A DNA stretch of 64,000 nucleotides, taken from contig JAPLLV010000025.1 in NCBI GenBank assembly GCA_026387405.1, positions 44,009 through 108,008 on the forward strand. Reading direction: 5' to 3'. Of the stretch, positions 43,093 through 46,361 are shown piece after piece. Source of the stretch: Candidatus Omnitrophota bacterium. Its GTDB lineage: Bacteria > Omnitrophota > Gorgyraeia > Gygaellales > Profunditerraquicolaceae. A program made the translations under genes and the position numbers. Below the pieces are notes generated by a model. The model saw only the letters and a list, made by a program, of their open reading frames with translations. It ran no database searches and was not told the DNA's origin. Within the stretch, counting starts at the first letter, position 1, and every line of letters starts with the position of its first letter.

Positions 43093-43168
43093 AGTCATTG
43101 CGAGGAGGCCGAAGGCCGACGAAGCAATCCCTAAAACGTGATTGCTTCGCACTTCGTGCTCGCAATGA
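43093..43168. repeat. small palindromic repeat element, intergenic copy (TIRs GTCATTGCGAG / CTCGCAATGAC, inner hairpin)
   Basis: Terminal inverted repeats plus an internal stem CGAAGCAATC-loop-GATTGCTTCG. A second copy lies in-frame inside folC at 45127-45270. Confidence 0.5.
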
Positions 43169-43190
43169 CAACAGATAATAGGGGGACAAG

Positions 43191-44783
43191 ATGGTTAGAA
43201 TTAAGCGTGCGTTGATCAGCGTTTCGGATAAAACAGGCGTTTTAGAGCTGGCGCAAGAACTGAATAAATTCGGGGTGGAGATTCTTTCTACGGGCGGCAC
43301 GGCAAAATTATTCCGTGAAAATAATATACCGGTTAAAGAGGTATCCGAATATACGGGGTTTCCCGAGATGCTCGATGGCCGGGTAAAGACCCTGCATCCC
43401 AAGATACACGGCGGGCTATTGGCCTTACGGGATAATCCCGAACATCTGCAGCAACTTAAAGAGCACGGGATAGGGTTTATCGACATGGTTGTAGTGAACC
43501 TTTATCCTTTTGAGAAGACCGTGCAAAAACCCAACGTGACGCTTGATGAGGCGATCGAGAATATCGATATCGGCGGGCCATCGATGCTGCGCTCCGCGGC
43601 CAAAAACCACCGTTCGGTAGCGGTGATCTGCAACCCGGGTCGCTACGGCCAGGTGGTCGAGGAGTTAAAGAATAACAAGGGTCTCCTGCCGGATAGCCTG
43701 CTGCGGGATCTGGCGGTTGAGGTGTTTGGCCGCACGAGTCAATATGATCAAGTGATACACAGTTACTTAAGTCACCAGTCGCCAGTCACCAGTCGCCAGT
43801 CAGGACAGGAGACAGGAGACAGGAGACAGGAGACACACTTCCCGCAGAATCTTAATCTAGAATTTGTGAAGGTTCAAGATTTGCGCTACGGAGAGAACCC
43901 GCATCAGAAGGCGGCATTTTATCGAGAGGAAAAAGCGGCCGGGGGAATAAGCGCCATTAAGCAGTTATGGGGCAAGGAGCTCTCATTTAATAATATCCTG
44001 GACTTAAACGCCGCAGTGAATATCGTCAAAGAGTTTGCTGATCCGGCGGTGGTCTTTCTCAAACATAATAACCCTTGCGGCGTTAGCGAGAACAAGGACG
44101 TTTTAAAGGCCTATAAAGATGCCTGGTCCTGCGATAAGCTTTCCGCCTTCGGAGGCATTGTCAGCGTGAACAGAAAAGTAGACCTTACCCTGGCGCAATT
44201 AATTGTCAAGAGCGGTTTCCTGGAATGTATTATCTGTCCCGCATTCTCTCCCGATGCCCTTAGTTTACTTAAAGGTAAGAAGAATCTAAGGTTGCTGGAG
44301 CTGCCCACTCTGCTTGAAAAATCGCAGGGCCTGGATTATAAGAAGGTCCTCGGCGGCTTATTGCTGCAGGACGAGGATGCTTTAACCTTGGATGAAAAAA
44401 CCCTTAAGGTGGTGACTAAGAAAAAGCCCTCCAAAAGCGAGATGGAGAGCCTTATCTTTGCCTGGAAAGTGGCCAAGCACGTGAAATCAAATGCCATTAT
44501 CCTTTGCCGCGGCAGGAAGACCGTGGGTATCGGCGCAGGGCAGATGTCCCGCGTGGATTCTGTGTTTATCTCGACTAAAAAATCCGGTAAACTAGCGATC
44601 GGAGCAGTGCTGGCCTCCGATGCCTTCTTTCCCAAAGAGGACGCTATCGAGCTCGCCGCTAAATATAAGATCAAGGCTATTATCCAGCCCGGGGGTTCCA
44701 TAGCCGACGAGGCAATCATCAAGATGGCGGATAAGCATAAGATCGCTATGTTGTTTACCGGCATAAGGCACTTCAGACATTAA
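43191..44783 (+). CDS. purH: bifunctional AICAR transformylase / IMP cyclohydrolase
   Basis: MVRIKRALISVSDKTGVLELAQEL…GGTAKL (MGS-like/IMPCH domain), then the AICARFT domain. Inter-domain linker contains a repeat-encoded insertion. Confidence 0.9.
   Translation: MVRIKRALISVSDKTGVLELAQELNKFGVEILSTGGTAKLFRENNIPVKEVSEYTGFPEMLDGRVKTLHPKIHGGLLALRDNPEHLQQLKEHGIGFIDMVVVNLYPFEKTVQKPNVTLDEAIENIDIGGPSMLRSAAKNHRSVAVICNPGRYGQVVEELKNNKGLLPDSLLRDLAVEVFGRTSQYDQVIHSYLSHQSPVTSRQSGQETGDRRQETHFPQNLNLEFVKVQDLRYGENPHQKAAFYREEKAAGGISAIKQLWGKELSFNNILDLNAAVNIVKEFADPAVVFLKHNNPCGVSENKDVLKAYKDAWSCDKLSAFGGIVSVNRKVDLTLAQLIVKSGFLECIICPAFSPDALSLLKGKKNLRLLELPTLLEKSQGLDYKKVLGGLLLQDEDALTLDEKTLKVVTKKKPSKSEMESLIFAWKVAKHVKSNAIILCRGRKTVGIGAGQMSRVDSVFISTKKSGKLAIGAVLASDAFFPKEDAIELAAKYKIKAIIQPGGSIADEAIIKMADKHKIAMLFTGIRHFRH
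43770..43836. repeat. heptanucleotide tandem repeats inside the purH linker ((CAGTCRC)x4.5 followed by (GGAGACA)x4)
   Basis: Read directly from the sequence. Encodes SPVTSRQSGQETGDRRQET in frame. Confidence 0.6.
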
Positions 44784-44831
44784 TGAGTATATCGCAACGA
44801 TAAGCGATTAGCGATATGCGATAAGCAAATA

Positions 44832-46361
44832 ATGACCTACCCCCAAGCCATTCAATACCTGGGAGGCTTCATCAACTATGAAAGGCTTCTTGACTGGCCG
44901 TATAAAGAATCTCTCCAGTTAGACCGATTCAAGATTTTCCTGGAAACAATAGGTAATCCTCAACTTTCCTTGCGTTGTATCCACGTCGCCGGCTCAAAAG
45001 GCAAGGGTTCTACCTGTGCTTTTATTGCCTATATATTGCGCCAGGCAGGTTTTAAAGTCGGTCTCTATACCTCGCCGCACCTTTCGGATTTCAGGGAGAG
45101 GATCAGGATATTGGCTCCTTCAAGGTTGTCATTGCGAGGAGCGATAGCGGTTGCGAGGCGAAGCCGAAGCAAACCAGCAGCCTGCGATAGATGGGATTCC
45201 TCGCTGCGCTCGGAACAGGCTGCGCAATCTCTAAAACGTGATTGTTTCGCCCCTTCGGGGCTCGCAATGACAGAGAGAATGGTTTGTGAGTTTGAAGGAA
45301 TGATCTCCAAGAGAGGCCTGGCAGCATTGGTAGCCAGATTAAAACCAGCCATAGATGTTTATAACAAGAGTTCGGAATACGGGCCGCTCTCATCTTTTGA
45401 GGTTTATACCGCCGCGGCGTTCGTTCATTTCAAGGAAAAAAAAGTAGATTTCGCGGTCCTGGAAACGGGCTTAGGCGGGAGATTTGACGCTACAAATACG
45501 CAAGACGCCATGGTTGTGGTTATAACCCCTATTAGCTATGAGCATACCGATAGGCTCGGTAATACATTGGCCAAGATCGCAGGCGAGAAGGCCGGGATTA
45601 TTAAAAAAAGTTGTCAGTTGCCAGTTGTTAGTTGTCAGAGAATAGTTATTTCGGCGCCACAGGATAAGGAAGCGAGGGAAGTCATCAGAAATAGGTGTAA
45701 GGCAGCAAGGGCAAAGTTATTTGAAGTGGGAAGGGATTTATTGTATAAAAAAATTCAAGGTTCAAAATTCAAGGTTCAAGGCATATTTGGAGAATATGGA
45801 AATTTAAAAACCAGGCTGCTCGGCGAGCACCAGTGGGTCAATGCCGCTACTGCCATAGGGGCGATAGAGGCCTTGCGCAATTACGATATTAAAGTAAGGG
45901 CCGGTGCAATAAAAAAAGGACTTTATGATACCTTATGGCCGGGAAGATGCGAGGTTGTTTCCAGGAAACCCATTATTGTTTTAGACGGGGCCCAGAATGC
46001 AGCATCCAGTCTGGTGTTAAAAAAAGCCATATCGCAGAATTTCAAATATAAGAGATTAATCCTGGTTCTGGGAATTTCCAGTGACAAGGATATTCTAGGG
46101 ATCTGTAGGCAGATATGTCCTAAGGCAAGCGAGATAATCCTGACGCAGGCCGATAATCCCAGGGCAGCCAGCGTTAATACAATAGAAGAGGTTATCAGGC
46201 GTCAGGCGTTTGGTGCCAGGTGTTGGATTCATAAGACTAAAGATGTGCGGGAGGCGTTAAGATTAGCCAAACTGAAGGCAGCCCCTGAGGGCCTAATTTT
46301 AGTCACGGGTTCGCTGTTTGTAGTGGGAGAGGCAAGGAAACTAAGTTTATGCTTAAATTAA
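44832..46361 (+). CDS. folC: folylpolyglutamate synthase / dihydrofolate synthase (Mur-ligase family)
   Basis: HVAGSKGKGSTCAFIAYIL…YTSPHL P-loop region and the Mur-ligase C-terminal domain. Carries three repeat-derived in-frame insertions. Confidence 0.85.
   Translation: MTYPQAIQYLGGFINYERLLDWPYKESLQLDRFKIFLETIGNPQLSLRCIHVAGSKGKGSTCAFIAYILRQAGFKVGLYTSPHLSDFRERIRILAPSRLSLRGAIAVARRSRSKPAACDRWDSSLRSEQAAQSLKRDCFAPSGLAMTERMVCEFEGMISKRGLAALVARLKPAIDVYNKSSEYGPLSSFEVYTAAAFVHFKEKKVDFAVLETGLGGRFDATNTQDAMVVVITPISYEHTDRLGNTLAKIAGEKAGIIKKSCQLPVVSCQRIVISAPQDKEAREVIRNRCKAARAKLFEVGRDLLYKKIQGSKFKVQGIFGEYGNLKTRLLGEHQWVNAATAIGAIEALRNYDIKVRAGAIKKGLYDTLWPGRCEVVSRKPIIVLDGAQNAASSLVLKKAISQNFKYKRLILVLGISSDKDILGICRQICPKASEIILTQADNPRAASVNTIEEVIRRQAFGARCWIHKTKDVREALRLAKLKAAPEGLILVTGSLFVVGEARKLSLCLN
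45127..45270. repeat. palindromic repeat element, 144 bp (48 codons) copy inserted in-frame in folC
   Basis: Same terminal inverted repeats and …CTAAAACGTGATTG(C/T)TTCGC… core as the 43093 copy. Length is an exact multiple of 3. Translated as …SRLSLRGAIAVARRSRSKPAACDRWDSSLRSEQAAQSLKRDCFAPSGLAMTE…. Confidence 0.55.

Follow-up and report, generated by a model that had tools for sequence, protein, structure and literature searches.

Dispersed hairpin repeats of an Omnitrophota genome, with an in-frame copy in folC, resemble the repeats linked to Ssn nucleases

How can the same small palindromic element lie in an intergenic spacer and, without breaking the reading frame, inside the essential folate gene folC? 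This question is raised by a 64-kb stretch of a metagenome-assembled Candidatus Omnitrophota genome (64,000 nt, in the following called the window), which contains two copies: copy A, 76 bp, between a ychF-like gene and purH, and copy B, 144 bp or 48 codons, within folC. According to our analysis, both are probably dispersed hairpin repeats of the kind described as CGTC-tagged repetitive extragenic palindromes (REPs) and Ssn-related motifs (SRMs), and the folC copy would be read through in a permissive loop of the protein. The family to which they belong looks like an undescribed class of repeats recognised by small GIY-YIG "Ssn" single-strand nucleases.

A family of hairpin repeats dispersed over many phyla

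The preliminary description of this locus had reported two copies with common inverted ends and a common core, one of them intergenic and the other preserving the frame of folC. Both were found, starting one base away from where it had placed them. Copy A begins 12 nt past the stop codon of the ychF-like gene and ends 21 nt short of the purH start codon; copy B starts at base 3 of folC codon 99, stops at base 2 of codon 147, leaves the frame intact and encodes (L)SLRGAIAVARRSRSKPAACDRWDSSLRSEQAAQSLKRDCFAPSGLAMT. Both are bounded by the exact 11-nt ends GTCATTGCGAG and CTCGCAATGAC. The four exact occurrences of these ends in the window all belong to the two copies, and no others appear at one mismatch; in dinucleotide-preserving shuffles of the window we counted a mean of 0.72 matches, with 2 of 100 shuffles reaching four. 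The common core CTAAAACGTGATTGYTTCGC occurs only at positions 43131–43150 and 45231–45250 of the window (0.03 occurrences expected) and extends to a 27-nt match of 93% identity (repeat family D20 of the window). Both copies folded more stably than shuffled controls, with z-scores of −6.8 for copy A and −3.5 for copy B. Allowing two mismatches per conserved block, there was no further or degenerate copy in the window, and its extension by 9 kb upstream and 1.4 kb downstream added neither a copy nor an ssn gene.

Chance can be dismissed as the source of the two copies because hundreds of copies occur elsewhere. We searched one-genome-per-species contigs with a stringent 31-base pattern, GTCATTGCGAG-N8-38-CGAAGCAATC-N6-14-GATTGCTTCG. 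The wider search for copies that the preliminary description had suggested revealed a large dispersed family at no fewer than 120 loci, though with no third copy in the window; the matches listed come from about 20 phylum-level lineages. Among these listed matches are about 22 loci of Omnitrophota, about 25 of Chloroflexota and about 16 of Bacteroidota (Pedobacter and Flavihumibacter isolates included), and further ones belong to Planctomycetota, Alpha-, Gamma- and Deltaproteobacteria, Nitrospirota, Gemmatimonadota, Ignavibacteriota, Patescibacteria, KSB1, Spirochaetota, Acidobacteriota, Latescibacterota, Hydrogenedentes and Riflebacteria. One match was obtained in 2.9 million viral contigs. 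Unannotated copies lie on plasmids of the cultured strains Methylosinus trichosporium OB3b, Novosphingobium resinovorum and Aulosira laxa.

We delineated the anatomy of the family from about 160 copies at other loci, 154 of which were used for counting flanking bases and duplications. Flanked by a pyrimidine on the left and a purine on the right, the copies read GTCATTGCGAG, arm, CGAAGCAATC, a loop of 6–20 nt, GATTGCTTCG, arm, CTCGCAATGAC. Each copy is a pair of inverted half-units with their heads pointing outward, YGTC-ATTGCGAG...CGAAGCAAT-C, followed by the loop and the mirror image. The base at position −1 is a pyrimidine in 148 of the 154 copies (96%; C in 62, T in 86), followed by GTC and then ATTGCGAG, and the base at +1 is a purine in 95%. 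A half-unit pairs only over ATTGC/GCAAT (5 bp) around an interior of 12–40 nt, and a CCAG tail is present in a subset only (e.g., L005, L009, L048 and L101). The minimal form is a single perfect 26-bp hairpin, GTCATTGCGAGCGAAGCGAAGCAATC, which includes GCGAAGC, the exceptionally stable d(GCGAAGC) mini-hairpin, and in longer copies the arms have grown around this apex; the CTTCG apices are the complements of the GAA triloops. The stems are conserved, and the arms and the loop vary: 96 different arm-stem sequences keep their complementarity around a constant GAA/TTC apex, and perfect hairpins of at least 4 bp are found in the arms of 39–46% of copies versus 12–14% of shuffled arms. Lengths range from 54 to 191 bp, with the majority at 67–82 bp. 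Several loci (L025, L031, L004, L049 and L089) carry tandem arrays of half-elements. The two-fold symmetry of the element precludes any inference of a preferred strand.

Perfect terminal inverted repeats of 11–12 bp, small size, many dispersed copies and a lack of coding capacity are also what a classical MITE (a miniature transposable element with inverted repeats) would display, i.e., an insertion sequence reduced by deletion and mobilised through its terminal repeats by a DDE transposase. However, none of the 154 copies is flanked by a target-site duplication. Clustering of 2283 open reading frames (ORFs) of at least 100 amino acids from 120 loci yielded no transposase family recurring near the copies, at a cut-off that hid the GIY-YIG genes of about 100 amino acids described below. 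No longer, DDE-bearing element with these ends was seen either, a GIY-YIG gene being the only gene between or beside them. We therefore regard a MITE as quite improbable.

The copy within folC and the history of the two sites

In an alignment with solved FolC structures, residues 94–156 of the window FolC (63 residues) face only 3 residues. The insert stands in place of residues 99–101 of Thermotoga maritima FolC (PDB 1o5z), between the strand RIRIL and the helix beginning GMISKRG. An AlphaFold model of the window FolC (mean predicted local distance difference test score, pLDDT, 81; predicted TM-score 0.83) puts it between strand 91–94 and a helix starting at residue 160; the means of 10-residue blocks drop to pLDDT 36–52 across residues 101–150, and the remainder is modelled confidently. 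The TIGR01499 and Mur-ligase domains were matched on either side. Among 120 Omnitrophota FolC orthologues, the 48-residue segment is absent from 118 and present only in the window FolC and in one further protein, P0110. The preliminary description was thus right to call the segment an insertion relative to orthologues, and the FolCs of solved structure do not contain it. It is not private to the window genome, as P0110 has the composite element and a close relative (L004, see below) a remnant of it. The P0110 FolC, about 60% identical to that of the window and found in three assemblies, carries this 144-bp composite too, at an identical position and in frame. An exact look-up of the window FolC in other assemblies returned no record, so P0110 is the one source of independent-assembly support for the insert.

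In both hosts, the insert has an open frame and a length divisible by three, and the L004 remnant likewise keeps the frame. Judging from this conservation of the frame and from the structure model, it is probably translated as a disordered loop of 48 residues. Removal of the 144 nt as an intron or intein, which would leave FolC unextended, would suit an insertion with strong secondary structure, but only a translated segment would be expected to have open frames of this kind, and motifs of a splicing junction are not evident. The Rfam search, run with gathering and with permissive thresholds, gave nothing relevant for the copies and no group I or group II intron, the insert peptides had no match in Pfam or NCBIfam at E-values up to 10, and the whole FolC had no match to a Rickettsia palindromic element (RPE) in NCBIfam. 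To our knowledge, 48 residues are far below the size of any intein. The chance of such an excision appears negligible. A word-index protein search with the 48 residues produced one weak, uninformative match and a HMMER search 2 matches among 1.84 billion protein representatives; hence, the composite in the FolC frame is rare among called proteins.

Copy B represents a composite subfamily, in which a 36-nt block plus a nested variant-family half-unit break up the left half of the inner stem. A composite-specific 24-mer matched four metagenome contigs, namely the P0110 folC, a copy in frame in dapF (L127; in a different reading frame) and two other contexts. All composite copies are mutually 86–90% identical. 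The two folC composites share 86% identity and each is 88–90% identical to the dapF copy, at 63% identity of folC itself between the hosts. Because the folC copies are no closer to each other than to the copy in dapF, the composite is itself a dispersed unit.

This similarity pattern bears on the idea that FolC of a subset of Omnitrophota has inherited the segment vertically since long ago and domesticated it for a function at the protein level, the intergenic copy then being unrelated noise. The same in-frame composite at the same position in FolCs of about 60% identity speaks for this idea, and the remnant in L004 places the insertion before that split. Yet the composite resembles the copies in dapF and elsewhere equally well (86–90%), and the two folC copies differ in their nucleic-acid loops, not at third codon positions. 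Moreover, the structure model leaves the segment disordered, deletions erode it in L004, and it is missing from nearly all orthologues, many of which have other repeat families in the loop. We consider domestication improbable.

Copies in frame are not restricted to FolC. We looked through the fetched loci for open frames running across a copy, and Pfam scans then confirmed eight further hosts, mostly from Omnitrophota and Patescibacteria: alanyl-tRNA synthetase (L099), GcvT (L044), RsmE (L067), Dus (L090), a HAD hydrolase (L111), a peptidase U32 (L115), CbiE/T (L120) and DapF (L127). For annotation, the family accounts for recurrent spurious peptides (SLRG..., VIARS..., RHCEE..., ...LAMT and ...RND) and for length outliers among the housekeeping proteins of metagenome-assembled genomes.

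The FolC loop itself (window 45111–45296) is hypervariable among the 120 orthologues between RERIRI and (D/E)FEGMIS. The usual loop has 13 residues with a 7-residue periodicity, e.g., LTPNTKHQTPNID and LNPASSIQHPASS, which are translated heptanucleotide repeats; in some proteins it has 26–35 residues from other repeat families, confirmed at the DNA level for L130 and L131. As judged from these sequences, the loop is a phylum-wide insertion hot spot in Omnitrophota. A loop of FolC that accepts almost any insert has thereby been identified.

For the history of the two sites, we compared the window with the close relative L004 (GCA_041643015.1), whose ychF-like protein, PurH and MnmE are 91–93% identical and whose FolC is 77.5% identical, and with a more distant Omnitrophota lineage represented by three independent assemblies (L001 to L003), for which the identities of the ychF-like protein, PurH, MnmE and FolC are 57–66%. 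The ychF/purH spacer of L004 is without a copy. It contains heptamer repeats instead (GCTATCA GCTTTCT GCTATCA GCTGTCA; L004 8314–8386), and the same sites are occupied by heptamer arrays or by the palindromic element in different genomes. The L001 spacer does have a copy, with 79–83% identity to copy A; a non-orthologous L001 copy reaches 90%. The simplest reading of these sequences would be independent insertions into the ychF/purH spacer. Copies lie directly downstream of ychF or the ychF-like gene in three genomes (window, copy A; L001 8349–8422; L006 6991–7069), which are too few for claiming a target preference.

In the folC gene of L004, a remnant of 72 nt can be aligned to parts of the composite; it is in frame and keeps its own perfect 12-bp hairpin via paired substitutions. 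The insertion is consequently older than the split between the window lineage and L004. In L001, an intact composite occupies the same position of folC, 5 residues past RIL and 6 ahead of FEG. One ancient insertion followed by many losses or recurrent insertion could each have produced this pattern; it is the least explained point of our analysis, and we do not favor either. The label "mobile-like" given earlier agrees with the dispersed distribution and the absence of duplications; movement itself is read from the distribution, as no clean pair of an empty and a filled site was obtained.

Recurrence at the same sites might also indicate that the hairpins are RNA or DNA structures selected by the host, such as mRNA stabilisers, attenuators or translational pause sites, and kept in place by selection, in which case they would not be selfish repeats. 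This is consistent with stems that are kept while loops drift (the window and L001 folC copies differ mainly in their loops), with the presence of the element in the ychF/purH spacer of two distant genomes and, in a third, right behind ychF, and with the strong folding z-scores. In contrast, the nearest relative, L004, does without the spacer copy and its folC copy is decaying. Across about 20 phyla, the genes and spacers that hold copies are unrelated and share no neighbour except Ssn genes, neither copy A nor copy B has a T-tract or a terminator- or promoter-like site, and no Rfam family corresponds to them. The two-fold symmetry favors no RNA strand, and in L001 the copy at the corresponding position resembles copy A less than the non-orthologous copy does. 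Host selection is thus an unlikely explanation. A terminator or promoter role of the copies was dropped, as no supporting sites were found.

GIY-YIG genes beside the repeats and the relation to known systems

In the Flavihumibacter soli isolate (L025), a GIY-YIG gene of 100 amino acids lies inside a cluster of copies, and the same arrangement is present in L045. We fetched four further GIY-YIG loci by protein identity, independent of the repeat (L132, L137, L144 and L145). In all six loci, the gene is flanked by the family or a close variant. There are full copies plus extra right ends on both sides of the gene in L137. In L132, the gene lies in the "loop", between three left halves on its upstream side and three or four right halves on its downstream side. 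Arrays of a variant occur in L144, and at least five canonical copies on each side in L145 (at least ten in total). The flanked proteins carry the PF01541 domain and are homologous to the SsnA-like protein of Neisseria; the L145 protein is 46% identical over 91 amino acids to the SsnA-like protein of Neisseria gonorrhoeae, whose gene is itself flanked by repeats called NTS. Distant homologues on plasmids have their own GTCAT-headed palindromes (Planktothrix, GTCATTCTGAG; Rhizobium, CGTCATCCCAGGGC; Azospirillum, CGTCATCCCCGCGAAGGCGGGGATCCAG; and Sinorhizobium).

Tandem arrays of half-units were observed beside Ssn-like genes in L025 (1744–2861), L132 (1358–2295), L145 (785–1921) and L151 (620–1500), with either several left ends following one another upstream or a series of right ends downstream. 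On plasmid AZO_p3 of Azospirillum lipoferum 4B (L153), an Ssn-like gene with CGTCATCCCCGCGAAGGCGGGGATCCAG repeats at its flanks lies between sufB and sufC, within an operon (888–1400).

The Neisseria repeat NTS (CGTCATTCCCGCG...) flanks ssnA, which encodes a single-domain GIY-YIG protein of 94 amino acids (cd10448) that binds a single-stranded DNA (ssDNA) hairpin and cuts upstream of it, and that is inactive on double-stranded DNA and RNA (Chenal et al. 2025, Nat Commun 16:2388, PMC11893778). The same study reported SRMs near 71% of ssnA homologues and likened the NTS-ssnA-NTS layout to insertion sequences and to REPs with their associated tyrosine transposases (RAYTs). Our family shares with these repeats the head HGTC followed by WY (YGTCAT in the family; NTS starts with CGTCATT), the hairpin potential, as judged by the folding and arm tests, many dispersed copies, the position on one or both sides of small single-domain GIY-YIG genes and the ATT...AAT-C frame of the unit, the interior of which differs. 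It is distinguished by a unit in which a 5-bp ATTGC/GCAAT stem encloses a mini-hairpin of the GCGAAGC type, from which variable arms grow, by copies that are nearly all inverted dimers of 54–190 bp, by hosts that include Omnitrophota, Chloroflexota and Patescibacteria, by the lack of an Ssn gene in the window and by frequent in-frame copies within genes, whereas 2% of NTS copies are intragenic (PMC11893778).

CGTC-tagged REPs were defined by Di Nocera, De Gregorio and Rocco (2013, BMC Genomics 14:522, PMC3733652). They are characterized by a CGTC or TGTC (or CCTC) tag, a stem starting with AT, a predominance of inverted dimers and known intragenic copies; they include dRS3 of Neisseria and RPE-4 and RPE-6 of Rickettsia and "apparently lack a dedicated transposase", with no tyrosine transposase gene flanked by them. 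Our family agrees in the C/T-GTC tag, the AT at the start of the stem, the inverted dimers, the in-frame copies, the missing transposase and the occurrence in several phyla, and it is not one of the four CGTC families treated in the accessible text. From the sequences compared, we take the family to be a divergent addition to the CGTC-REP/SRM kind, outside the described families. Searching the literature by sequence strings returned unrelated primer matches only, and the sequence family, its occurrence in Omnitrophota, its breadth of phyla, its in-frame habit and its link to Ssn genes are absent from the searchable literature. The preliminary statement that such elements were not described for this lineage therefore holds for the family, but not for its class, which is known.

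The preliminary description had compared the elements to RPEs (Ogata et al. 2000, Science 290:347, cited from PMC10969869), and the likeness extends further than it had proposed, to in-frame copies in FolC plus eight other genes and to the CGTC head of the RPE-4/RPE-6 superfamily. RPEs are likewise palindromic and stop-free, do not destroy the unrelated housekeeping genes in which they lie in frame, and insert at positions that fit the protein fold. There is, however, no sequence relation to the RPE peptide families (NCBIfam and Pfam negative), the family spans many phyla instead of one genus, and most of its copies have 67–82 bp compared with about 150 bp given for RPEs in a 2024 review.

Inverted hairpin dimers that flank one small gene, for a nuclease or a transposase, and that have scattered without duplicating their target, with an enzyme that probably acts on ssDNA, are also the hallmark of REPs and of REPINs, inverted REP pairs mobilised by a RAYT, i.e., a Y1 HUH transposase of the IS200/IS605 type (Nunvar 2010, PMC2817692; Bertels and Rainey 2011, PMC3116915). 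The inverted-dimer arrangement is the one that predominates in CGTC-tagged REPs and that defines REPINs. A REPIN origin would fit this arrangement, the lack of duplications and the seeming adaptation to ssDNA, and a Y1_Tnp gene is situated 4.5 kb from folC in L001. Nevertheless, the enzyme beside our family has a GIY-YIG and not a HUH Y1 fold, and the head is YGTC and not GTAG. REPs are as a rule restricted to one species; this family, by contrast, has kept 31 identical bases from phylum to phylum. The hairpins on either side of the L001 Y1_Tnp gene are GAAACAGTTTC hairpins unrelated to the family, and CGTC-type repeats reportedly do not flank any gene for a tyrosine transposase (PMC3733652). 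We judge a REPIN origin very improbable. The link to a RAYT through this gene was dropped because its hairpins differ from the family; the gene encodes a 158-amino-acid IS200-like transposase between its own inverted hairpins (L001 15056–15532, minus strand).

Weighing these comparisons, we favor the interpretation that an Ssn-type nuclease recognises the repeats as hairpins and that they spread as non-autonomous copies carrying no gene. Their dispersal and the absence of duplications are directly observed; the part of an Ssn-type enzyme in spreading them is what we infer. The composite copy landed in the hypervariable surface loop of FolC described above. Because it has no in-frame stop and a length that is a multiple of three, it would be read through and translated, and FolC would tolerate the disordered loop; copy A would be a neutral passenger in the ychF-like/purH spacer.

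Several observations weigh against this interpretation. No Ssn homologue was found in the window, its additional flanks of about 10.5 kb or about 30 Omnitrophota loci, profile search included, and the partner enzyme for the window genome or its phylum is at present a candidate. The published SRM pattern, HGTCWYN(0-2)YYVSBRHN(0-5)WNVSBRGN(0-2)RNCYNB, matched none of 160 family copies and nothing in the window, although it matched the controls NTS, Azospirillum L153 and Rhizobium L152. The described CGTC families have a stem of 8–9 bp, a loop of 4–5 nt and a CCA tail (PMC3733652), in contrast to the 5-bp unit stem of our family. Random insertion leaves unexplained why the same composite lies at the same folC position in genomes whose flanking proteins are 57–66% identical. 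Translation of the insert is deduced from its open frame, and repeat dissemination driven by Ssn is a hypothesis even for Neisseria, in which the demonstrated role is the restriction of incoming ssDNA (PMC11893778).

In a more far-reaching scenario, which we regard as possible but rather doubtful, the GTCATTGCGAG family is a distinct, multi-phylum class of Ssn targets, the dimers of which would be cut just outside both heads, one per strand, and re-inserted by targeted homing. Homing to hairpin-prone or heptamer-repeat sites, and not random insertion with subsequent selection, would be indicated by the same folC position in distant lineages and by the recurrent copies in the ychF/purH spacer. 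If true, the "orphan" CGTC REPs, including the in-frame RPE-4 and RPE-6, would gain a mobilising enzyme and a mechanism.

Under the favored interpretation of Ssn-recognised hairpins, the partnership between Ssn nucleases and hairpin repeats would extend to a repeat class missed by the published motif and to the little-studied lineages Omnitrophota, Chloroflexota and Patescibacteria. It would join three literatures, on RPE-style in-frame insertions, "orphan" CGTC-tagged REPs and SRMs, and the Ssn homologues flanked by the family are candidates for new ssDNA cutting specificities.

Feature coordinates and further repeats in the window

Table 1 Positions of the two element copies, their parts and the adjacent genes in the window.
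Feature	Position	Strand	Details
ychF-like gene	42380–43081	+	233 aa; YchF-GTPase_C domain only; directly upstream of copy A
Copy A	43094–43169	not assigned	76 bp; spacer between ychF-like gene and purH
Copy A, outer inverted repeats	43094–43104 and 43159–43169
Copy A, left arm	within 43105–43119		GGCC-GAA-GGCC
Copy A, inner stem	43120–43129 and 43140–43149		CGAAGCAATC and GATTGCTTCG
Copy A, central loop	43130–43139
Copy A, right arm	43150–43158		CAC-TTC-GTG
purH	43191–44783	+	530 aa; directly downstream of copy A
folC	44832–46361	+	509 aa; Mur-ligase M and C domains intact; TIGR01499 match in two stretches around the insert
Copy B	45128–45271	+	144 bp, 48 codons; in frame within folC
Copy B, outer repeats	45128–45138 and 45261–45271	+
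Copy B, 36-nt block	45147–45182	+	GCGGTTGCGAGGCGAAGCCGAAGCAAACCAGCAGCC; marks the composite subfamily; identical in 5 of 5 composite copies found
Copy B, variable segment	45183–45193	+
Copy B, nested half-unit of variant family and left half of inner stem	within 45183–45229, after the variable segment	+	GGATTCCTCGCTGCGCTCGGAAC; GCAATC
Copy B, loop	45230–45239	+
Copy B, right half of inner stem	45240–45249	+	GATTGTTTCG
Copy B, right arm	45250–45260	+	CCCC-TTC-GGGG

Tandem repeats with a 7-nt period were found in purH (43770–43835), in folC (45609–45638 and 45750–45781) and in the spacer between the two genes (44798–44826). Their units are AGTCACC/AGTCGCC, GACAGGA, AGTTGTC, AAAATTCAAGGTTC and CGATAAG, and those within genes are read through as short extra loops, e.g., SHQSPVTSRQSGQETGDRRQETH in PurH. 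We take these heptamers to resemble the short tandemly repeated repetitive (STRR) heptamers of cyanobacteria. A second small element, consisting of GACCAAC/GACTAAC heptamers around a GC-rich hairpin (CCCCGCCTGCC...GGGCGGGCAGGG), is present in mnmE (47671–47728) and in an intergenic region (61766–61830). It lies in frame in the N-terminal domain of MnmE, and the window MnmE is 15–23 residues longer than the L004 and L001 proteins.

The ychF-like gene is a short form, comprising the C-terminal YchF domain and no G domain, which also occurs in L001 (7641–8342) and L004 (7612–8313). As it is the same in all three Omnitrophota genomes, it is a conserved form and not a truncation. At 11907/11908, the window has 86 bases fewer than positions 20999–21084 of L146, a contig from another sample that is otherwise 99.98–100% identical. 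Without these bases, a gene for a glycosyltransferase of the PMT_2 family appears in the window as two ORFs (10520–11929 and 11856–12692), which is due either to a strain-level deletion or pseudogene, or to an assembly error.

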